IMG/VR virus record: IMGVR_UViG_3300012036_000005
Coordinates: 36,553 to 100,552 of that record
From: a virus
Length of the DNA stretch: 64,000 nucleotides
Strand: one strand, 5' to 3'
A model generated the notes under the pieces. That model was not told where the DNA came from. It saw only the letters and a list, made by a program, of their open reading frames with translations, and searched no databases. Made by a program: the position numbers and the translations under genes. The first letter of the stretch is position 1; every line of letters begins with the position of its first letter. This document shows, in pieces, positions 5,130-61,307 of this stretch.

Positions 5130-5666
5130 ATGAAAAAGATTCTGTTTGCGGCAACTTTCTTGTTGTCTTTTTCGTCTGTTAGTAATGCTTCAACACTTGG
5201 AAATCCTACTGGCTATGGTAAACCTCCTCCAGGACGTGACGAGAGTCAAATTGAATGCCTTGCGTTTAATATCTATCACGAAGCACGTGGAGAAAACCTT
5301 GCTGGAAAATTTGCGGTAGCAGACGTAACACTCAACCGAACACGAGACAAAAGATTTCCGGATACTATTTGTGATGTAGTTAAGCAAGGTAGTTTAAAAT
5401 ATCGAAAAGCTGACCACTCACCTAAAATCAACGTGTGTCAATTTAGTTGGTGGTGTGATGGTAAAAGTGACGAACCGTTAGACGAAGAACTTTGGGCAAT
5501 TTCACTTGATATTGCTTATAAGATTGGATGGGGCCAAAGTTTCCGCGGTATTACAGAAGGTGCTACTCATTATCATGCAACTTATGTAGATCCGGCATGG
5601 TCTAAGGATTTCTATATCGTTGGACGAATTGGTAATCATATTTTCTATCGTTGGGATCTTGATTAA
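5130..5666 (+). CDS. Cell wall hydrolase, SleB/Hydrolase_2 family
   Basis: Signal peptide; CLAFNIYHEARGE, FPDTICDVV, CQFSW, GATHYHA, IGNHIFY. Confidence 0.93.
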   Translation: MKKILFAATFLLSFSSVSNASTLGNPTGYGKPPPGRDESQIECLAFNIYHEARGENLAGKFAVADVTLNRTRDKRFPDTICDVVKQGSLKYRKADHSPKINVCQFSWWCDGKSDEPLDEELWAISLDIAYKIGWGQSFRGITEGATHYHATYVDPAWSKDFYIVGRIGNHIFYRWDLD

Positions 5667-9929: not shown

Positions 9930-11255
9930 ATGCAGCATTTTGGTGTGCATAGTAACGAAATCAATCAATTGCTATATGGATTTAACGGACCTCAAAAAAG
10001 ACAATTAAAAAAATTATTCCTAAAACTTGCAAAGACACGTTTTAAAGAAGGACAAGAACAGTCATTTGAAGATGAAAAAGCTTTTATTGAAAGCTTTAAA
10101 ATCTTAATTGAGAAACTTGCAGCCAAAGCAACAGGAACACTAGAAGCAATCGAAGCTCAGTACCAAGAACAGTTTACAGAAGAACCAGACACTAAGATAA
10201 AAGGTGTATTAGGCAGAACTATGCCAGCAGCACCTGAATATACTCAAATTGAAAAAGCTGTACAAGATACTCTCCGTAGTGTTTTCTTTAATGCAGCTTT
10301 TGGTTCTAATACATTAGATGAACAAAGAGAAGATAGAACATTACTAACTGATTTCTTAGCAGCATGTGAAGATGGAATATTAGAATTAGGACCTCTCATA
10401 GACAAGAAATCAGGTAATATACTCGAAGAATTTCGTAAGACCAAATATGCCAAGTTAGAACCGTTTGTTAATGAATTACTTCAAAAGGTTCCAAGCGGAT
10501 CTGGTGCAGGCAGTTGGGGTCCTGCAGAATTAGGATTATCAATTGTTGGTACCCCTGTTAAGAAAGCAGATAAAGGTGATTTGTGCCTAGGCGACGGACG
10601 TAAGATTGAACTTAAGGCAAGTCGTGATCCAAAATCCGGAGCAAGAATTAATACTCCTGCTATAGGCAGTGGACGATCAGGTGAATCTAATTATACAAAA
10701 GCATGGAATAAATTTACCAAAGACTTTGGATTTTCTTATAAGAAAACCAGTAGATCAAGAGCAGTATTGTACGCCCATGATTTTATTAAAGGAAAGAAAT
10801 TAATACCTGGTCACCGTTCTATAACATTTACAAATTTTGGACCCACTGTGATTAACAAGGTATTAAATCCGGCTATAATTCTACACGATCCAACTAGAAA
10901 CGAAATAAAAGAGTTTTTAACTGATGTGGCATTATCTTCTGTTTTAGAAGAATACAAACCATTAGGTCGTAAGTTATTTAGAGCAGCTAAAGTAGTTAAA
11001 AGAAACAAGACAATAGATGGTGCTGCTTTCGTAGCAGAATATCTTCATATGTTACTTTCATTCTATGCTTTAACAGATGAAATAGAAGAAATAGTTATAA
11101 TTAATCCAATCTCTGGAAATTACGAAGTTGTTGATGCAACTGACACAGATACATTAAAAGACAAATTAGAATCAGGTGAAATAATATTAGGATCAACATA
11201 TATTGACTTTTCGGATTCTCAAAGCAAGGCGTCTCCTCAATTAGGAATATATTGA
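9930..11255 (+). CDS. Hypothetical protein, possible PD-(D/E)xK nuclease fold
   Basis: GPAELGL...KGDL...IELKAS motif. Confidence 0.45.
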   Translation: MQHFGVHSNEINQLLYGFNGPQKRQLKKLFLKLAKTRFKEGQEQSFEDEKAFIESFKILIEKLAAKATGTLEAIEAQYQEQFTEEPDTKIKGVLGRTMPAAPEYTQIEKAVQDTLRSVFFNAAFGSNTLDEQREDRTLLTDFLAACEDGILELGPLIDKKSGNILEEFRKTKYAKLEPFVNELLQKVPSGSGAGSWGPAELGLSIVGTPVKKADKGDLCLGDGRKIELKASRDPKSGARINTPAIGSGRSGESNYTKAWNKFTKDFGFSYKKTSRSRAVLYAHDFIKGKKLIPGHRSITFTNFGPTVINKVLNPAIILHDPTRNEIKEFLTDVALSSVLEEYKPLGRKLFRAAKVVKRNKTIDGAAFVAEYLHMLLSFYALTDEIEEIVIINPISGNYEVVDATDTDTLKDKLESGEIILGSTYIDFSDSQSKASPQLGIY

Positions 11256-31348: not shown

Positions 31349-31696
31349 AAGGTTAAAATGGCAAAATACATAAAAGGAAATTTCAAAGGTCTTTCTAAGG
31401 CAGAGAGAGCACTTGCACTTGAGGTGCATTTAAAATATTTAGAAAGAATATTTAGATCAGGGCAAGTTCCTTTTGGTCAAAGACACAATCTTAATGAAGA
31501 AATTGAAGAAGTTAGTATTAAGTTGACTCGATCAAAATCTTCGCCCGGATTTGAAACAAGTGAATTTTTTGAATTACAGAGAAAATATAACACAGATCAA
31601 GAATATACAGAACATCTTGATTCTATCATCAACAAAGATATAGATGAGTATGCTGCCGAATTGTTAGAACGATCAAAACAAAAGTAGGAAATTAAA

Positions 31697-32008
31697 ATGT
31701 ATAAACCTTTGTCGGATAGATTAACCATCCGAGAGAGTAAAATTGAAGGTGTAGGACTTTTTGCGACAAAAAAGTTTCCGGCAAATACAGTTTTAGGAAT
31801 GGCACATATCAAAAATGTAAATTTTCCACATGGATATATTCGAACAGCAGTAGGTGCATTTTATAATCATTCAGACGATGCTAATTGTAAAACTATGAAT
31901 GGTTATTGGCAACACATGCCAGTAAAGTATCTTGTTACTATTCGAGATATAAATGCAGGAGAGGAACTTACTGCTCAATATACACTTTATAACGTAGAAG
32001 ACATGTAA
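31697..32008 (+). CDS. SET-domain protein (putative lysine methyltransferase)
   Basis: GVGLFA, FYNHS, RDINAGEELTAQY. Confidence 0.88.
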   Translation: MYKPLSDRLTIRESKIEGVGLFATKKFPANTVLGMAHIKNVNFPHGYIRTAVGAFYNHSDDANCKTMNGYWQHMPVKYLVTIRDINAGEELTAQYTLYNVEDM

Positions 32009-32647
32009 TGATAAGTCGACCATCTTTAATCAAATATAAAGATCTAATAGAGAAATATCCAGAGTTGTTAGGCAACATTGAAGGCCCACCGGTTGAACAA
32101 GGTTGGAATAATATTCTTGATCAGATCTGTTCAACCATTGAATGTCAAATTAAAATAAACGGTGTAACTCGACCCAAAGTTCTTCGAATTAAAGAAAAAT
32201 ATGGAACTCTGTGTTTTTATTATCGATGGATTAAAATACCTCCAGTTCTCTTAAGAAGAGAGATAGAAGATACAATATCTATGATAGAATATACTTCAAA
32301 CCATATATGTGAAAGATGTGGACGGCCTGGCGAACTTAGAGATGGAGCTTGGATAAAAACATTGTGTGATTTTTGTGAAACTAATGAGATACTGCAAGGT
32401 AAACGATGTTTGTAAATCATAAATTACATAAACCCGGCCAGGCAATACATATGTTATTATGTAATTATGATATTGGTAATACTCTTGAAGAAAGAGATGA
32501 AAGAAATAATAAAATTGATAGATGGATAGTGAAATACCGTAAAAAATCTAAAATAAAATTGGTTATGTCTGATAGTTTTTATGTACTTAAAATCTATTTT
32601 GAAGACCCAAAATTAGCTACCTTATTTGCAGTAACGTTTGGATAAAA

Positions 32648-36040: not shown

Positions 36041-36123
36041 TCTGGTGTGCCCCGAATGGTAAGGGAGCCGACTGTTAATCGGTAGCTGTAATGGCCCTGT
36101 AGGTTCGAATCCTTCCACCAGAG
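36041..36123 (+). tRNA. tRNA-Asn(GTT), long variable arm, no encoded CCA
   Basis: CCGA-CT-GTT-AA-TCGG anticodon arm, GTTCGAATC T-loop, ends G-CAA. Confidence 0.85.
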
Positions 36124-36199
36124 CAAAGAACACAATTTCTAACTTCTAACTTCTAACTTACTTAAACGATGAATAATCTTGTAGGTTAGAGGTTATAAC

Positions 36200-39363: not shown

Positions 39364-39608
39364 AATTACTTTATTATAAGAGATCTTTTTTAAAGTATAA
39401 ATCCTTTGGGGAATGACCCAAAGACTACTGTCTAATTTAGTTTGGGTGAGGCCGACTAGATGAAAACAGTAGACCATCAAGTTAGTGCTCTTTACCCTCA
39501 CTTAGATCACACTAACTTGCTCGTTCGTCTAGGGGACAGGACGCCGGCGGAGGTCGGAAACACTGGTTCGAATCCAGTACGAGGTTCTTGGTTTAAGTGT
39601 GCATTGCC

Positions 39609-39681
39609 CACCCGTAGTTCAACTGGATAGAGCACCCGCCTTCTAAGCGGATTGTTGCAGGTTCGAGTCCTGCCGGGTGGG
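39609..39681 (+). tRNA. tRNA-Arg(TCT), no encoded CCA
   Basis: Cloverleaf; ends G-CAA. Confidence 0.9.
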
Positions 39682-39952
39682 CAATACACATTTAAAATTT
39701 AGTTTGGAATAGTTTAACATAAGGAAGAAATTTATGAAGATGCGAATAGTAGAAAAATTAACAGACGGTAATTGGGAGAAACTTCTTAGTATGTCTGAAT
39801 TGTCTGAAGGTGATACTTTTAGATTATGGGAAGAAGATGGAAAAGCAGCTGAAAATCAAATTGGTAGTACAGTTTTTGAAGCAGTAGGTGAACCTTATCT
39901 TAACGAAAACGGAAGATGGACTATTAATACTAATCCACTTTAATATAAATGA

Positions 39953-41201: not shown

Positions 41202-41451
41202 ATCTAGGAGTTTATAAAAAATGAATTATTATAGATACTATTGTAAGAAGACTTTAGAAAAAACTGGTGATATTGACCTTAGTTTTAAAAATGGAATAAA
41301 ACTATGTAAACATAAAGAAAGAATGGCAATATTATACAGACTATTTGGTGCGCTCTTATCTTTATCTATAGTTGGAGCAATAATATTAATAACAATAGAA
41401 ATACTCGTTAATAACCGTTGACAAAATGTATAGGAAGTGTTATAAATATAC

Positions 41452-41784
41452 TTGCAACGTTGAAGCAAACTCAACGCTAGACAGGACTCCGGGGCAGTGC
41501 CGGACAGGTCCACCATAAGCACAACGGTCGCATTTAGAGTAATTGTCCGGTTGCGATAAGTTGGGATCACATACCGTTGTGCTTATGACGGGCCTGAAAC
41601 AGGATCGACTGTTAGTCATTAGGTGAGTGGAGTTGTCCGGATCTAAGCTCGGTTAACGCGAAGAACAACTGTAAATGCAGCATCTAATGCAGCAAATGAT
41701 AATTTCGTAATGGACCAAAGCCTAGCGGCTTAATCCTTATGATTTAATCGGGGCTCGGAGGCGCCTGGCAACAGAAGCCTCCAC
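41452..41784 (+). ncRNA. ssrA: Circularly permuted (two-piece) tmRNA, alphaproteobacterial type
   Basis: Acceptor piece ending CAGGTCCACCA (41515), paired intervening segment, coding piece from GGGCCTGAAACAGGATCGAC (41590); tag frame ...ANDNFVMDQSLAA* (41677-41733). Confidence 0.92.
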
Positions 41785-42825
41785 TTATTTCCAAATTTCT
41801 TGTATTGGTACAAACTTCGTACCAGGATACAATTCTTCAATGTTATTCCATGTGTAATTATCTACATCGGCTTTATCCCAAAGGGTTCCGTGTATTTTAC
41901 TTTCCTTACCAATTGAAACATGAGTAAAATCTTTTAAGAGAATTTTAACAAAAGCAGGTTGAAGGTTTTTAATACTTGCAAGATAGAATAATAAATCTTC
42001 ATTATCTTCTTTTACTAAATGATCATACAAATTTTTCTGTAATTGAGCCGAAACATTAACCGATGCTACTTTAACATTTTCTAATTTCTTAATTAATTCA
42101 TTAATTGCTTTATCGGGTGTGAGTTTGTTTGAGATTCCGCGTTTCTGTTTAGTGATGCTGAGTTTCTCTACTACTTTAAAAGAGGCGCTGCTAAAGAAAA
42201 CTGCTTGGGTTGGTTCACTTTCGTGTATAATTCCACCACCGTTATCTACAGCATAAGTATAACCAAGAACTTGAGATAGTATCTTATTCCAAAGCACTGT
42301 TGATTTTCTTGTTCCGTTGTTTAGTGTAATTTTATTACCAGCTAAGATCATGGAAAGTGATCTAGTTACGTTCCACAAACGGGCACCATATGAATCTAAT
42401 TTAGATTCTTCTATTGCTTGTTTCGTTACTATATTGAATAAGTGTTCGCTTATTTTACCAACTATCTTATCATGTAATTTTTTCATGTCAGAATTAAATT
42501 GTGTTTTGGTATATCTATTAAGATCTAATTTAGAATTTTGATCTTTTGCTTCTATTATCCAAGCAAATGGTTGATTGCCTTGATATGGTAATCCTCCAAA
42601 TCCATCTTCGCTTACAATATCATAAGCATATCCAGTTTGATATGTATATACTCCAATCGGGGTATTATATTTGTTTGCTGGATTAAGTCCAATCTTATCA
42701 ATAGCAGTCATACTCATGTAATGATTATTAGAAAACTGATATTGTGCCAAATCTTCAATAGGGCTTGATCTTCTATTCTGTTCTGGATTGCGTCGAAGCT
42801 CACTTATAAGTTCTTGGTATCTCAT
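41785..42825 (-). CDS. Hypothetical protein (paralogue of 45362-46354), possible ADP-ribosyltransferase-like fold
   Basis: Shared KIGLNP...TP.G.YTY, LWNV.R, LGY...D..GIIH..E.TQAVFFS; MRYxE N-terminus. Confidence 0.6.
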   Translation of the reverse strand: MRYQELISELRRNPEQNRRSSPIEDLAQYQFSNNHYMSMTAIDKIGLNPANKYNTPIGVYTYQTGYAYDIVSEDGFGGLPYQGNQPFAWIIEAKDQNSKLDLNRYTKTQFNSDMKKLHDKIVGKISEHLFNIVTKQAIEESKLDSYGARLWNVTRSLSMILAGNKITLNNGTRKSTVLWNKILSQVLGYTYAVDNGGGIIHESEPTQAVFFSSASFKVVEKLSITKQKRGISNKLTPDKAINELIKKLENVKVASVNVSAQLQKNLYDHLVKEDNEDLLFYLASIKNLQPAFVKILLKDFTHVSIGKESKIHGTLWDKADVDNYTWNNIEELYPGTKFVPIQEIWK

Positions 42826-49699: not shown

Positions 49700-50398
49700 A
49701 TGCGTAAACTAATTGAAATTCGATCTGCAGAAGGCGGATCAGACAGTCAGCTTTTTGTAAGTGATTTGGCTGCTGCATATCAAAAGATGGCTCTCCGAGA
49801 AGGTTGAACTTATCGAGTCGTAGAGGAACGTCCTAACGGCTCGGGACATTTTATGATTGCTATTGAAATAGATGGCAAGAATATCCAAAAATTAAATCAA
49901 GAAGCCGGTGGACATCGAATACAACGAGTTCCACCAACTGAAAAACGAGGACGTGTCCATACCTCAACTGTTACAGTAGCTGTCTTGTCTAAAGAAGAAA
50001 ATGTTGATCCAAAATATGAAATGCTAGAAGACCACCATTTCTATGTAGAATGGTTTAGCGGATCAGGTGCTGGAGGCCAACATCGAAACAAACATCAAAA
50101 TAGCTGCCGATATTATCATATTCCTACAGGATTGGTAGAAACAAGGCAGGGACGCAGCAGAGATACTAACTTACGCAATGCAAAAACCGCGCTTGTAGCG
50201 CGGCTACAAGAGGCTACAAGCGGGTTGCAAGCGCAAGCGCAAGCAACAACACGCAAAGCACAAGTAGGATCCGGAATGCGTGGAGATAAAAAACGAACGT
50301 ATCGTTTTCAAGATGATCAAGTAATTGATCACGAAACCGGAAAGACTGCTAGTACGAAAAAAGTAATGCGAGGCAGCTTTCGAGAACTTTGGAAGTAA
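49700..50398 (+). CDS. Class I peptide chain release factor (RF1-like, lacks domain 1) with in-frame TGA at 49805-49807
   Basis: AGGAG RBS; IEIRSAEGG..S.LF..DL..AY...G*; EAGGHRIQRVPPTE..GRVHTS; GAGGQH; RTY. Confidence 0.88.
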
Positions 50399-54211: not shown

Positions 54212-55375
54212 ATGTCCGAAATAAAAAAATTAGAAATTGAAAAATTTCAAACACCTGCTGTTATGAAATTAAAACAAATAATGGAAGATGCAGGACATGA
54301 AATTCGCATTGTTGGAGGAGCGGTCCGCGACTTAGTCTTGGGTAAGGAACCCAAGGATATTGATATGGCAACTGACGCCACTCCTGATGAAATGATCAAA
54401 ATTTTTCTTCGTGCGGATATTCGGTATGAACCAACGGGCTTGCACCATGGCACGCTCACAATCATCATAGATGGAGAGATATTCGAAATTACCACGCTTC
54501 GGACTGATAAAGAGACGGATGGACGACACGCTATAGTAGAGTTTACCCGTAACTGGAAAACCGACGCGGAGCGTCGTGATCTCACTTATAACGCTATGAG
54601 TGTTGACCTTAATGGCAACCTCTACGATTATTTCAATGGCGTTGATGACCTTCGTGCAGGTCGTAGTAAGTTCGTTGGTGATACTGCAACTCGTATAGAA
54701 GAAGATTATCTTCGAATTTTGCGTTATTTTAGATTTCAATGTCAGTTAGATAATCCACATTGGGACTCTGATACGATTAAAATCATCAGAGAAAAAACAC
54801 CTAATCTTGTTAAGATTAGTGGAGAACGTATCTGGGCTGAAATGTCTAAAATTTTAAAATCTCAAAAAGTATATCCATGTATGAGGTATATGTACGAAAC
54901 AGATGTACTTGATTATATCTCTTTGTCATTATCTTTTGACGATGTTACTAAGGTTTTAACTTTTAGAAAAGTTTCTAACGATCCTATAATTATTTTAGCT
55001 AGTTTAATTGGTGATTTAGACAAACTTGCTGTTATAAAAGAACGTTGGAAGATTTCAAATGAAGAATATAAATTAATTAACTTTTTGTTATCGAATAAAG
55101 ATACAACTTTAGACAATCTCTTTATTAGAGCAGGATTGTCTCGTGGATATCCACGTAGATATTTCTCTGCTCTTGCATTATTTAAGGGTAATAAAGTTTT
55201 ATCAGAGTTTGCTGAGACTTGTGAAATCCCATTGTTTCCTGTTACGGGAAAAGATTTATTTTCAATAGGAATGAATCAAGGTCCTGATATGGGAAGAGCA
55301 TTAGATTTAATGAGAGATAAATGGGAAAAGTCTAATTTTACACTTGACAAATCACAATTACTTGCTATTATATAA
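54212..55375 (+). CDS. cca: CCA-adding tRNA nucleotidyltransferase (class II)
   Basis: VGGAVRD...[36 protein letters not shown]. Confidence 0.93.
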
Positions 55376-55397
55376 GCACAACAAAAGGAACAAAAAA

Positions 55398-56006
55398 TTG
55401 CTAGTAGAACAGAACAACTTGGTACCGATGGTAGTTGAAGACTCGGGCCGAGGCGAGCGTGCCTTTGATATCTATAGTCGATTGCTACGTGAACGTATTG
55501 TTTTCTTAAATGGACCAGTAGATGATTATTCAGCTAATCTAATCTGTGCTCAGATGCTTTATCTTGAATCGGAAAACGATAGCAAGGATATTAGCCTTTA
55601 TATTAATTCACCTGGTGGACATATAACATCTGGTATGGCAATCTTTGATACAATGAATTTTATCAAACCAGACGTGAGTACACTAGTTATGGGGCAAGCA
55701 TGTTCAATGGGATCATTTCTGTTGTCAGCTGGTACAAAAGGAAAGAGATACAGTTTGCCAACAGCACGGATAATGATTCATCAACCAAGTGGTGGCACAA
55801 GAGGACAAGTAACTGACATTGAAATCTCTTATCGAGAGATTCAACGTGTAAAGGAACAGCTGACCGGTTTCTACGCTAAACATAGCACAACTGGAAAGAA
55901 ATATGAAGAATTTCTTGAAGCTATGGAACGAGATCGTTTTATGAGTGGCGAAGAAGCTCGTGATGTTTGGGGCATTGTTGACCAAGTTGTTGAGAAGCGT
56001 CCTTAA
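55398..56006 (+). CDS. clpP: ATP-dependent Clp protease proteolytic subunit
   Basis: [36 protein letters not shown]. Confidence 0.96.
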
Positions 56007-56865: not shown

Positions 56866-56944
56866 GCTCGGTTAGCTCAGATGGTTAGAGCCGGAGTCTC
56901 TAAAACTCAGCGTGTCAGGGGTTCAAGTCCCTTACCGAGCACCA
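56866..56944 (+). tRNA. Amber suppressor tRNA (anticodon CTA)
   Basis: GCTCGGT/ACCGAGC-A-CCA acceptor; GAGT-CT-CTA-AA-ACTC anticodon arm; GTTCAAGTC T-loop. Confidence 0.88.
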
Positions 56945-57667: not shown

Positions 57668-59782
57668 ATGAAGATTAAGAATTCTTTCGCGCTAAAGAAG
57701 CTAAATGCGGTCGTAGTTGACGCCGGAAACGCAGACAACAAAGAACTGGCTATGACGTTAAACGTCAATATTATGAATCTTGGATTTGTTATGTCGGCTC
57801 CTCTCTTTGATGCGGTAGCCTCTCTCTCCGATAAAAAGATTGAAAAATTTGCTACAGGTATGGTTCGTGAACTAAAGTATTTGGTTGGAGCGAACGTAAG
57901 GTACCAGCCAATGTATCCAAATTTTCCACAGCAAGTAATCGAAGCAGATGATTACGAATTGCTTTATAATGCACTTCTGCATTATTGGTCCTTTGGAGAA
58001 ATATTGCCAGAGTATGAAGAAAAAGCACGTGAATTTTCTTTTGAGAAAATCAAGCTCAAGACAATTGGTCTTGCAACTCAAGCAGAATTTGATGCTATTC
58101 TAACCAAGTTGCTTTCGTCTGCGGATTCTATATCTGACGAGGACAAAGAAATCATTGAATGGTTCAATGAAAACCATCCAAACTTTGAATCTCTTGTACC
58201 AAGCACAATTCCTCACAAGGAAAATATGTCACTTGTTGCAGGAATGCGAGTTAAACAAGGTGATGATATTACTTCACTTGTTAAGACCGGTACTGATGTT
58301 ATGCGTGTCTATGCTTATTTGTCAGACGCTGATGTATCTTTGACCGATAAGGTTAAATTTAAGTCAATGCCAAAGAAGGTTCGTCGTCAACTTACACTTT
58401 CTCTTGAGAAGGTATTGAACGACGAAGATCTTGCACGTCGACCAAACGAATTTGTTCGTATGTCACACAGCTTGCATGTTGGTGATTTCTCTAATGAAGT
58501 CTGGCAGAAAGTTAACAAGGTGCGTGACAACAAGCGCCGCGGTGAGATTGAAACTTTTTCTGGAAAGATTGAGTCTGCAATCATTGCTAAGGATTTTCTT
58601 GGAGCATCAAAGATGCTCAAGAGTCGTCCTGGTGAATTTGCACGTCGAATTTCTGAACTAATTGATAAGAGTGGCGAAGTAGAAGCAATCTTGCGTGATT
58701 TTACGGCAGTGGTTGACCATGTTCCAACTCGTGTTCTTGCACAGGTTTGGGGTTACGTTAACTCTCGACGCACAAAGAACGACAAGATGTTTGTCATGCC
58801 AAAGGGTGCTTCGACACAAAACGCAATGGTCATCAAGAAGCCAAAGAATGCTTGGTCGTCCAAGACCGTTGACGATTTTGAAAAGGTCATCCGTGATTCT
58901 CTCCTAAGTCGTTTCTCTAAACTAGACAAGCTAGGAAAGGTTTATGTTGATCCGGCATTGATGGGTTGCCCGTTGCCAACGCAGATGCGTTCAACTAGCA
59001 AGGCGGTTAAGACACTAGCACGTGGTACTAGGATGCCTTTTGGCGACGACAAAGGAACGCTTCGATTCTTTATCTACTGGAAGGGAATGGACATTGATTT
59101 GTCTGCTACATTCCATGGCGAGGATTTTGAGATGCGTGACCAAGTCTCATACACGAACTTGCGTTCTGAAGTTGTAAAGGCATATCACTCCGGTGATATC
59201 ACCCGAGCTCCAACCGGCGCTTCGGAGTTTATCGACATCGACATTGATTCTGCTCTAGCAGCAGGACATCGATATGTTGCGATGAACGTTTATGTCTTCA
59301 ACGGACCAAGCTTCGCTGAGCATGAAATCTGCTATGCAGGTTGGATGACTCGTTCTAAGCCAAAGTCTAATGAGATATATGATCCGAAAACTGTTGTGCA
59401 GAAGGCAGACCTTACGTCGGAGTCTAGGAATGCAATACCGGCAGTGTTTGACCTTCAAACACGCGAAGTGATTTGGCTTGATATGTCAACTTCTGGTCGT
59501 TTAGGTTATAGCTTTGAAAGTTCATGGGGTCGCACCGGACGTAATATTAAGTGGCGCGGCGGCAACAATGTGGAAGCCAATAAAGCTACTACATCAGAGA
59601 TGATTGAATTTTTCACAATGCGAAACAACAAGATCAGTTTGTATGAGCTTTTCGAAACTCATGGTGCTGCACGAGGCGAATTGGTTACTAACCGTGATGA
59701 AGCAGACTATGTATTTGCTTGGGATGGAGACACTACTCCATTCGACATCATGGATATTAATTCAATGTTTGTGATAGATTAA
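57668..59782 (+). CDS. Large helical protein with C-terminal TerD-like domain
   Basis: PMYPNFP.QV, RPGEFARR; C-terminal FF.YW...DIDLS...HSGDIT.AP.GASEFIDID. Confidence 0.75.
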   Translation: MKIKNSFALKKLNAVVVDAGNADNKELAMTLNVNIMNLGFVMSAPLFDAVASLSDKKIEKFATGMVRELKYLVGANVRYQPMYPNFPQQVIEADDYELLYNALLHYWSFGEILPEYEEKAREFSFEKIKLKTIGLATQAEFDAILTKLLSSADSISDEDKEIIEWFNENHPNFESLVPSTIPHKENMSLVAGMRVKQGDDITSLVKTGTDVMRVYAYLSDADVSLTDKVKFKSMPKKVRRQLTLSLEKVLNDEDLARRPNEFVRMSHSLHVGDFSNEVWQKVNKVRDNKRRGEIETFSGKIESAIIAKDFLGASKMLKSRPGEFARRISELIDKSGEVEAILRDFTAVVDHVPTRVLAQVWGYVNSRRTKNDKMFVMPKGASTQNAMVIKKPKNAWSSKTVDDFEKVIRDSLLSRFSKLDKLGKVYVDPALMGCPLPTQMRSTSKAVKTLARGTRMPFGDDKGTLRFFIYWKGMDIDLSATFHGEDFEMRDQVSYTNLRSEVVKAYHSGDITRAPTGASEFIDIDIDSALAAGHRYVAMNVYVFNGPSFAEHEICYAGWMTRSKPKSNEIYDPKTVVQKADLTSESRNAIPAVFDLQTREVIWLDMSTSGRLGYSFESSWGRTGRNIKWRGGNNVEANKATTSEMIEFFTMRNNKISLYELFETHGAARGELVTNRDEADYVFAWDGDTTPFDIMDINSMFVID

Positions 59783-59833
59783 CAAAAAAGTAGTTGACAA
59801 CATAGAAAAACGTTGTTATACTTTTTAAATAAT

Positions 59834-59987
59834 AAAACGTTGCTGCGGTACACGATATGCTAAAAACCGTCAGCCACTTAAACAGAATGAGAACTGGCTC
59901 TGTCATGCCGTGGTATGTTATACTGGTTCTCAGCTTTACCTTTGGGTTGAGCAGGTTCTGAGCAGCCGGTACAGGTGGTAACGTTTT
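59834..59987 (+). ncRNA. Candidate small RNA with its own promoter
   Basis: TTGACA/TATACT upstream; AAAACGTTGC/GTAACGTTTT closing stem; no ORF. Confidence 0.5.
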
Positions 59988-60070
59988 GTTAAAAGTTTGA
60001 ATTAGTAGTTGACATAGTTTAAAATTGTGTTATACTGTTTAAACAGTAAGACATAACAACAAAGGAGAAC

Positions 60071-60926
60071 ATGGGCGGTGTAGCGTCCATAAGGGCAGGT
60101 GCAGCAATGCACTTAAAGGTAGGAAGCCTACATACTACCACTAACAGCAATGTTAGCCCAACTATGCAAGCCTGAATTAGATGATGCCGGTAATCATTCC
60201 GTAGCATGTCCCATCCTTAGGAAGGTGGTAAGCTTGAAGATAGTAAGACAGTCCGAAAGGATAACACTGGAGCCAGTCGGTGAGGTGTAATGCGGTTGGC
60301 GCCGCTACTGACTTAGCCAAACTATCGAGAGCCTAATACTAACAGGTAGGACAGAGTCTGATCGTTAGCGCGAAAAGGCGACGTCCATCACAAACGAAGA
60401 AGGGTGAGAAGCCCGGAAACGTGAAGTGAGGCTTAGTACCCCGCAAGGAGAAAAGCAGGTGGTGTGTTGTATTTTGTATCTAACAAGGTACGAAGCAACT
60501 GGGGCAGCACATCGCAGTAGGTTGCAATATAGCCAAACGGTAAAGGCAACGGTTTCTAAGACCGTCGATTACAGGTTCAAATCCTGTTATTGATAAAAGC
60601 AAAGACTGGCCCGGTCGCATGTTAAAGATGCCTAATGCTAAACCTCGGTGAGGAATTTAGCACACCGGAGCTCGCAAGGCAAAGGTGTTTGTTGGAAGTG
60701 AAGACGTAAAGGGTTAGCGCCTTTGAATTGCTCGCAAGGCAAGCGGAAGAACGAACGACGAGTAGCATGTGACGACGAGTGAAAAGCGACACTCTCAAAA
60801 ACGCGGCATTGGTTGATACTAGGGTAGTTGTTTACAACACTTTAGTGGATAAGGAATTAACATGCCTCGCAAGGGCATGGTACGGTTCTACTAAAGGCAA
60901 CCATTAAAACGTGTAATCTCAGCGTT
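60071..60926 (+). ncRNA. Large ornate ncRNA, GOLLD-like
   Basis: About 850 nt GC-rich ORF-free region with many GCAA/GAAA-capped hairpins, in a tRNA cluster, own promoter; family by recall only. Confidence 0.65.
60523..60594 (+). tRNA. tRNA-like domain with CTA anticodon embedded in the large ncRNA
   Basis: D arm TAGCCAAACGGTAAAGGCA, ACGGT-TT-CTA-AG-ACCGT, ACAGG-TTCAAAT-CCTGT; 5-bp acceptor, no CCA. Confidence 0.7.
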
Positions 60927-60990
60927 GATTTACTAGACCGAAAGAGCTCAATAGGCTCTTTCCGTGTGATAAATAAACTATATAGAGTTT

Positions 60991-61066
60991 GGGGTCTTAG
61001 CTCATCTGGGAGAGCGTCTGCTTTGCACGCAGGAGGTGATCGGTTCGAGTCCGATAGGCTCCACCA
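60991..61066 (+). tRNA. tRNA-Ala(TGC)
   Basis: Cloverleaf, G3:U70, CCA. Confidence 0.95.
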
Positions 61067-61095
61067 ATATTAAGACATGACAAAGGGCAGTAACA

Positions 61096-61307
61096 TGTTA
61101 AAATTTGGATATCATGGATCTTCAAAAATCTTTGAAAAATTTAATACCAAAGAAATTTTTCTTGCAAAGGGTGAGCATGAAGCAAGACGGTATGGAAGTA
61201 ATATGTACAAAGTTTGGTTTGAAGGAAACCCAATGTTTGAAACAGGAACTATCTTTGTTATTGGACTAGACAACATTAAAGAAATTGAGAACATTACTAG
61301 TTCTTAA
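61096..61307 (+). CDS. Small ART-like hypothetical protein
   Basis: YHGS...F..F...IFL......A..YG pattern. Confidence 0.45.

Follow-up and report, generated by a model that had tools for sequence, protein, structure and literature searches.

The last 64 kb of a viral contig of 100,552 bp, the stretch of DNA analyzed in this work and hereafter called the window, encode a GOLLD RNA (positions 60071-60926) whose linker holds a tRNA fold with an amber anticodon, CUA. GOLLD is among the largest bacterial non-coding RNAs. It is found in phages and prophages near tRNA islands, and recent cryo-EM work revealed that it forms cages of 12 to 14 copies and raised the idea that the tRNAs sometimes present in its linker are a cargo (bioRxiv 10.1101/2024.12.08.627333). 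In a GOLLD of Mycolicibacterium, a tRNA-Phe in J13/15 is directed toward the interior of the cage, and its maturation may be prevented (PMC12990946); the inner tRNA of the M. aubagnense GOLLD was called a pseudo-tRNA and gave no expression on northern blots (PMC6582537). Since GOLLDs with a linker tRNA are already known, the possible novelty of this locus is the amber anticodon, and no report of a stop anticodon in a GOLLD tRNA surfaced in the part of the literature naming both GOLLD and anticodon that was covered here. Our results make it probable that the fold is a tRNA-like domain tethered to the GOLLD scaffold, and that its unusual CUA triplet does not decode. We favor this reading because the three arms of the tRNA are kept, the top of the acceptor stem and the CCA are lost, and the two ends merge into the junctions of the GOLLD.

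The GOLLD RNA and its genomic setting

The element is a true member of the GOLLD family, in agreement with a preliminary description that had called it GOLLD-like. The Rfam model of the family (RF02032, gathering score 150 bits) matches positions 60459-60925 of the + strand with 184.7 bits (E 2e-50), and the alignment spans the full model (positions 1-416 of 416). Only the conserved 3' half of GOLLD is represented in this model. The 5' half of the element (from about 60073, approximately 390 nt) could be aligned to its counterparts in the GOLLDs of Sinorhizobium phage Phosso, Phaeobacter phage MD18, and two IMG/VR contigs, with L008 among the aligned GOLLDs, which confirms the boundaries 60071-60926. 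When these aligned 5' domains are turned into an nhmmer profile, the same domain is recovered in relatives. The description of the region as about 850 nt, ORF-free, and rich in hairpins also holds: the longest overlapping ORF has 62 aa, and positions 60045-60930 fold with a minimum free energy of -279.6 kcal/mol (z = -3.4 relative to 20 shuffles). Besides GOLLD and tRNA, no Rfam family matches 59700-61100 at E up to 1.

Four parts follow each other on the + strand. The variable 5' domain (60071-60458), outside the Rfam model, was delimited by the alignment and the nhmmer profile. It is followed by the first hairpin of the conserved 3' domain with the junction CAGCAC-AUCGCAGUAGGUU (60459-60518, model positions 1-62), a string that is conserved across the 239 loci of the clade described below. 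The embedded tRNA-like domain (60523-60595) occupies the linker, as given by the Rfam tRNA model, ARAGORN, and the analysis of the acceptor stem. The remainder of the 3' domain (60596-60925) runs from the AAAAGCAAAGACUG junction to the conserved 3' end GUGUAAUCUCAGCGU, as delimited by the alignment and by the Rfam match up to model position 416.

The promoter credited to the element by the preliminary description is recognizable, by sequence match, as a putative site of the sigma-70 type at 60009-60036 (+ strand), with TTGACA, a spacer of 16 nt, and a TG-extended TATACT (11 of 12 consensus positions). Past the 3' end, a 7-bp hairpin (AAAGAGC / GCUCUUU; 60941-60961, + strand) that lacks a U tract could be read from the sequence. 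The terminator scan did not call it, and it may act in processing or terminate transcription weakly; at the corresponding position of Phosso there is a clear terminator. Upstream of GOLLD, a second site of the same promoter type (TTGACA-17-TATACT) lies at 59794-59822. The approximately 165 nt behind it (59794-59995 with the promoter) form one long rod-like hairpin closed by AAUAAAACGUUGCUGC and GGUGGUAACGUUUUGUU, with a minimum free energy of -59.8 kcal/mol (z = -4.9). This sequence, which has no Rfam match at E up to 1, is a candidate for a small RNA encoded directly 5' of GOLLD.

The contig has a G+C content of 36%, and the window, according to the ARAGORN and Rfam annotation, contains 36 tRNA genes and a two-piece tmRNA gene of the alphaproteobacterial type (41419-41824). 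The contig thus comes from a large uncultured phage, whose tRNA island lies in this part, and phage tRNA clusters are where GOLLD RNAs occur according to the preliminary description. The host is probably an alphaproteobacterium, and the available 100 kb are probably part of a much larger phage genome. A tRNA-Ala gene lies 65 nt downstream of GOLLD. The relatives of this GOLLD also reside in phage genomes. In the roseophages MD18, DSS3P8, and DSS3_MAL1, a permuted two-piece tmRNA gene lies within about 250 nt 3' of GOLLD (6118-7230 of L003, 6123-7138 of L005, and 3110-4065 of L006, respectively), and a nucleotidyltransferase gene comes right after the pair in these relatives. The window differs in that its tmRNA gene is 19 kb upstream of GOLLD. 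It encodes a CCA-adding enzyme at 54212-55372 (PolyA_pol head domain; NCBIfam CCA tRNA nucleotidyltransferase, 199 bits), in a gene that overlaps that of a ClpP protease (together 54212-56003).

The gene at 57668-59779, also upstream of GOLLD, encodes a protein of 704 aa without Pfam match. Its homologues are found in phages of Rhodococcus, Mycobacterium, Lactobacillus, Ruegeria, Rhodobacter, and Xanthomonas, and several of the phage groups with such homologues also carry GOLLD. We considered this protein as a partner of GOLLD and dropped it, because neither of its IMG/VR relatives (L001 and L002) has a GOLLD within 6 kb.

The embedded tRNA fold and its counterparts in the clade

The tRNA fold, with the CTA anticodon at 60556-60558 that had been noted before, is recovered by two programs. 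The Rfam tRNA model (RF00005) matches 60523-60595 with 55.1 bits, for a gathering score of 29 bits, and ARAGORN calls a tRNA at 60522-60596. The fold sits where the Rfam alignment of GOLLD has an unstructured linker, at the same place as the tRNAs of published GOLLDs, and thus fits the earlier remark that some members of the family carry a tRNA. Its anticodon loop (UUCUAAG) has the normal 7 nt and includes U33 and A37. The D arm combines a 3-bp GCC/GGC stem with GG in the loop, and the T arm is canonical (ACAGG-UUCAAAU-CCUGU, which contains GGUUCAAAUCC). The acceptor stem is defective: pairs 3-70 to 7-66 are Watson-Crick, while 2-71 is G.A and 1-72 is U.U, which leaves five Watson-Crick pairs where a tRNA has seven. 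There is no CCA. The 3' side continues directly into AAAAGCAAAG, the discriminator A being followed by AAAGCAAAG. The five acceptor pairs, the missing CCA, and the Gln-like D arm of the preliminary description are therefore all found in the fold, and the tRNA of the phage that most resembles it is indeed its own tRNA-Gln(UUG), with 71% identity and the same GCC/GGC D stem.

Among the free tRNAs of the window, 33 of 35 have an encoded CCA. The only two without it are tRNA-Asn(GUU) at 36041-36124, which has an extra arm and a total of 84 nt, and tRNA-Arg(UCU) at 39608-39682. Inverted repeats of 12-14 nt on either side of each gene would lengthen the acceptor helix, and the anticodon types of the two tRNAs are among the commonest inside GOLLDs.

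We identified GOLLDs by blastn in the phages MD18, DSS3_MAL1, DSS3P8, and Phosso, and Rfam confirmed all four. In MD18, DSS3_MAL1, and Phosso the GOLLD holds a tRNA with the anticodon UCU in the same position; that of DSS3P8 has no linker tRNA. Scans of IMG/VR and metagenomes with the conserved junction strings gave a total of 239 GOLLD loci of the same clade, with 175 distinct linkers. The strict version of the junction pattern had 2 hits, the loose version gave mostly chance matches, which were sorted by nhmmer, and a third version was used. All 14 clade loci that were examined with Rfam pass the GOLLD threshold, and in total twenty further GOLLDs were placed above the gathering score. The clade occurs in alphaproteobacterial phages and in many viral contigs from freshwater, marine, and soil samples. 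Almost all of the collected loci have a linker tRNA at the same spot; some members of the clade, such as L005 and L112, are without any tRNA. The tRNA is always flanked by CAGCAC-NUC-NNN-GUAGGUU and by AAAG-N-CUG (the AAAAGCAAAGACUG junction), and in most loci the acceptor strand takes its initial bases from the GGUU of the upstream junction. Among the scaffolds, that of L007 is the closest, with 88% identity to the GOLLD of the window upstream of the tRNA and 77% downstream of it, and the two share the downstream tRNA-Ala and tRNA-Leu(UAG). Its embedded tRNA is only 63% identical to that of the window and reads UCU. The metagenome scan for close relatives of the window's GOLLD found none.

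We compared the 158 analysable embedded tRNAs of these loci with the 1745 distinct free-standing tRNAs that they contain. An encoded CCA is present in 9 of the 158 embedded tRNAs (6%) and in 1700 of the 1745 free ones (97%; Fisher p 1e-167), an acceptor stem without mismatches in 19 of 158 (12%) versus 1490 of 1700 (88%; p 4e-90), and a stop or non-triplet anticodon in 20 of 141 (14%) versus 13 of 1745 (0.7%; p 2e-15); these p-values overstate independence, because the 175 linkers are related to each other, but the contrast is still very large. Within the acceptor stem, pairs 4-69 to 7-66 are Watson-Crick in 89-97% of the embedded tRNAs, and mismatches affect 1-72 in 51%, 2-71 in 60%, and 3-70 in 41% of them. 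The anticodon arm and the elbow show another trend, with U33 in 79 of 80 embedded tRNAs, a purine at position 37 in 77 of 80, and a T loop that is kept too.

The poor acceptor end and the missing CCA are a class-wide feature, since they are shared by embedded tRNAs of every anticodon. This modifies the earlier claim that the tRNA of the window is probably non-chargeable: it is indeed unlikely to be an ordinary chargeable tRNA, and the reason for this is the loss of CCA and acceptor top across the class. We did not find this loss stated in the portion of the GOLLD literature consulted so far.

Some of the evidence is contrary to a tethered domain. The embedded tRNA of the window has a well-preserved core (55 bits, with U33 and A37, GGUUCAAAUCC in the T arm, and GG in the D loop), a minority of the embedded tRNAs have a CCA or a clean acceptor stem, and in some relatives they score like free ones, up to 68.7 bits with the Rfam model. 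The dominant Asn, Lys, and Arg-AGA anticodons suit an AT-rich phage, and hence provide a hint of a use in decoding. It is possible that embedded tRNAs of this class are released and used in decoding, in which case the CCA-adding enzyme of the phage could finish those that lack a CCA.

A different explanation takes the fold as punctuation, i.e., as a signal at which RNase P and RNase Z would separate the 5' from the 3' domain of GOLLD, the tRNA being a by-product. We regard this as very improbable. The position of the tRNA, exactly between the variable 5' and the conserved 3' domains, is what one would expect of such a signal, but an acceptor stem with an open top is a poor substrate of RNase P, and the clade includes members that have no tRNA (L005 and L112). 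The 3' domain alone is able to assemble in vitro, as a decamer, which would fit a separation of the two halves; however, well-ordered cages come from full-length GOLLD, with the 5' domain capping the assembly (PMC12990946).

Anticodon variation and the reading of UAG

If the function of the element depended on its amber anticodon, one would expect this triplet to be kept in homologues. The comparison of anticodons across homologues, which the preliminary description had proposed as a check, revealed instead that they vary widely. Among the 141 embedded tRNAs of the clade called by ARAGORN, 37 have GUU (Asn), 18 UUU and 16 CUU (both Lys, together 34 of 141), 10 UCU (Arg), 8 UGA, 6 UAG, 5 UGU, 4 UCA, 2 UUA, and 1 CUA, the latter being that of the window's GOLLD. 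About 90% of the anticodon loops have 7 nt, 12 have 8 nt, and 1 has 6 nt. Stop anticodons account for 7 of 141 (5%), close to the 3/64 that random triplets would give. Where UGA (Ser) and UAG (Leu) anticodons were listed individually, they are on short class-I bodies of 71-74 nt, a misfit for tRNAs of Ser and Leu. The preliminary description took the fold for a reader of UAG, possibly a decoy for anticodon nucleases or a modulator of amber termination; a function specific to amber is not supported, with CUA in a single case and stop anticodons at a nearly random rate. It is more likely that the amber anticodon is a rare variant than that it is a working reader of stop codons. As for the other stop anticodons, UCA is embedded in the GOLLDs of L220, L256, L286, and L291, and the 214-kb viral contig L143 has an embedded tRNA with the ochre anticodon UUA (10349-10422).

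The tRNA bodies closest to that of the window are those of L223, which has the same anticodon stem and a loop of 8 nt, and of a group with the loop CUCUUAA (Lys CUU). The anticodons of the nearest relatives are CUU, UGA, or UAG, or lie in loops of 8 nt. The loop of the window (UUCUAAG) differs from CUCUUAA at positions 32, 36, and 38, and within the anticodon CUA is one base change (position 36) away from Lys CUU. We first considered that an Arg UCU loop like that of Phosso had shifted its register by one base (UUCUAAG versus CUUCUAA). This route is also possible, and we now prefer a descent from the Lys CUU loop with changes at 32, 36, and 38, because nearer tRNA bodies were found. As judged from these alignments, the anticodon turns over quickly on a stable scaffold.

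Such domains might serve as decoys. In this scenario, the 12-14 tethered tRNA-like domains of each particle would soak up anticodon nucleases, or other tRNA-binding proteins involved in defence or modification, and protect the tRNAs of the phage and of the host. PrrC and PARIS attack tRNA-Lys, colicin E5 attacks tRNA-Asn, and colicin D tRNA-Arg, and the dominant Lys, Asn, and Arg anticodons of the clade are those of the tRNAs hit by these known nucleases. The cage gathers many copies in one particle. The retention of U33, of a purine at 37, of the 7-nt loop in about 90% of the cases, and of the elbow, while the acceptor end is lost, would also fit a recognition of the anticodon arm or of the L shape. 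Yet, the frequent 8-nt loops and the odd anticodons speak against a tight mimicry, and one review locates the domain in the interior of the cage (PMC12990946), which large proteins may be unable to enter. Moreover, the CUA loop mimics no host tRNA, and the member studied here would therefore be a poor decoy, unless position 36 is ignored. Altogether, we find a role as a decoy improbable.

The reading of UAG may still matter to this phage, since it encodes both a free amber suppressor tRNA and an RF1-like factor. The free tRNA (56866-56944) has the anticodon CUA in the loop CUCUAAA, a perfect acceptor stem of 7 bp, A73, and an encoded CCA. Free tRNAs with this anticodon are also present in the GOLLD loci L143 (at 5204-5278, 5 kb from its GOLLD tRNA), L166, and L179. 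The factor (49700-50398) is a truncated class-I release factor of about 232 aa with the PPT and GGQ motifs, which lacks domain 1 and is interrupted by an in-frame TGA at codon 36; it is closer to RF1 (197 bits) than to RF2 (105) or PrfH (54), all scores being below the cut-offs. No in-frame TAG that would need suppression was found in the 100,552-bp contig, and over the whole contig the gain in ORF length is smaller when TAG is taken as sense than when TGA or TAA is. TAG ends 8 of the 136 well-scoring ORFs of the + strand, where it is the rarest stop, and 6 good ORFs of the - strand. With one exception, the extensions of the good ORFs ending in TAG are short and non-coding. The exception, at 31349-32011, is the next gene, in the same frame and with its own start, and we rejected a recoding of TAG (code 15) on this basis.

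These elements would be put to use if the GOLLD particle stored a working UAG reader, either of the Gln type or derived from a tRNA-Lys. The caged tRNA would be excised by RNase P and a 3' nuclease, completed with CCA by the nucleotidyltransferase of the phage, and then charged, which would provide a timed read-through of UAG beside that of the free suppressor. The intact anticodon arm (U33, A37) and good tRNA core are consistent with this, as are the resemblance of the body to the phage tRNA-Gln(UUG) (71%), the gene of a CCA-adding enzyme 5 kb upstream, the canonical tRNA-CUA and RF1-like gene in the same window, and the rarity of TAG as a stop. The state of the acceptor stem can be read both ways: the glutaminyl-tRNA synthetase of E. 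coli (GlnRS) opens the 1-72 pair, so that a mismatch there need not block charging and is compatible with it, but the enzyme uses the 2-71 pair, which is removed by the G2.A71 mismatch. Several results are harder to reconcile with a caged suppressor. CUA is unique among the 141 anticodons, the missing CCA and the open acceptor top are common to embedded tRNAs of all anticodons, there is no in-frame TAG in 100 kb, and an RF1-like factor would oppose suppression at UAG. The pseudo-tRNA of a mycobacterial GOLLD was also undetectable as a separate RNA (PMC6582537). We therefore consider this explanation unlikely. In an elaborated form, which we think is less likely still, the 12-14 copies of a Gln-type suppressor stored in a cage would be released late, completed with CCA, and would act with the free tRNA-CUA and the RF1-like factor to switch UAG between stop and sense in late genes located beyond the available 100 kb.

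Proposed role and relation to known systems

We thus return to the tethered domain, the explanation that we regard as probable. A promoter of its own would drive the GOLLD gene within the phage tRNA island, and the RNA, by homology with the GOLLDs studied by cryo-EM, would assemble into a cage of 12 to 14 copies. The tRNA fold between the 5' and 3' domains is a standard module of this clade of GOLLD. By keeping the D, anticodon, and T arms, the module retains the L shape, the U-turn, and the elbow of a tRNA; of the acceptor stem it keeps only the lower four or five pairs, and its ends, devoid of CCA, merge into the conserved junctions of GOLLD. Each protomer would then present one tRNA-like domain, neither released nor charged, whose role may be to show the shape of a tRNA to a tRNA-binding factor. 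Our guess is that this partner is encoded by the host or by the phage, and the decoy for anticodon nucleases discussed above would be a special case of it, which the drifting loop, and above all CUA, fits poorly. The CUA triplet would be one state of a fast-changing anticodon loop, for which we see no evidence of a role in the reading or regulation of UAG.

Taken alone, the locus adds little beyond a further GOLLD whose anticodon is unusual. It is the comparison across the class that constrains the question of the role of GOLLD: the anticodon arm and the elbow are kept, the CCA and the top of the acceptor stem are lost, and the anticodon is free to change. This pattern favors a tethered tRNA-shaped domain over a store of working tRNAs. 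If the amber anticodon did turn out to be functional, this would be the first RNA cage tied to the control of stop-codon reading.

The GOLLD of the window resembles in several respects those whose cages have been observed by cryo-EM, namely env-38 (14-mer) and the GOLLD of Streptococcus agalactiae (12-mer). It has the same layout of a conserved 3' and a variable 5' half, a length of about 850 nt, and a location beside phage tRNAs. Nothing essential separates it from the GOLLDs of RF02032, although its clade has linker junctions of its own (GUAGGUU ... AAAAGCAAAGACUG). The tRNA occupies the same place, J13/15, as the tRNA-Phe of the Mycolicibacterium GOLLD and the pseudo-tRNA of M. aubagnense, but its anticodon is CUA.

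A second comparison is with the phages that recode TAG as Gln (code 15). As in these phages, the phage is large, and one finds in the window the CUA anticodon, a Gln-like tRNA body, many tRNAs, and the gene of a release factor. In contrast to them, the contig has no in-frame TAG in 100 kb, and TAG ends at least 8 good ORFs of the + strand. Unlike the suppressors of code-15 recoders, the tRNA of the GOLLD is part of a larger RNA, lacks a CCA, and carries two mismatches at its acceptor end. The phages that recode TAG are reported to carry RF2, whereas the factor of this phage is RF1-like.

Finally, the embedded fold belongs with other cases where the L shape of a tRNA is a module of a bigger RNA, such as the tRNA-like domain of tmRNA, bacterial YrlA, and the 3' tRNA-like structures of plant viruses. 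The domain of tmRNA and the structures of plant viruses keep a working acceptor with CCA and are charged. The domain of GOLLD, on the other hand, loses the acceptor end and keeps the anticodon arm.
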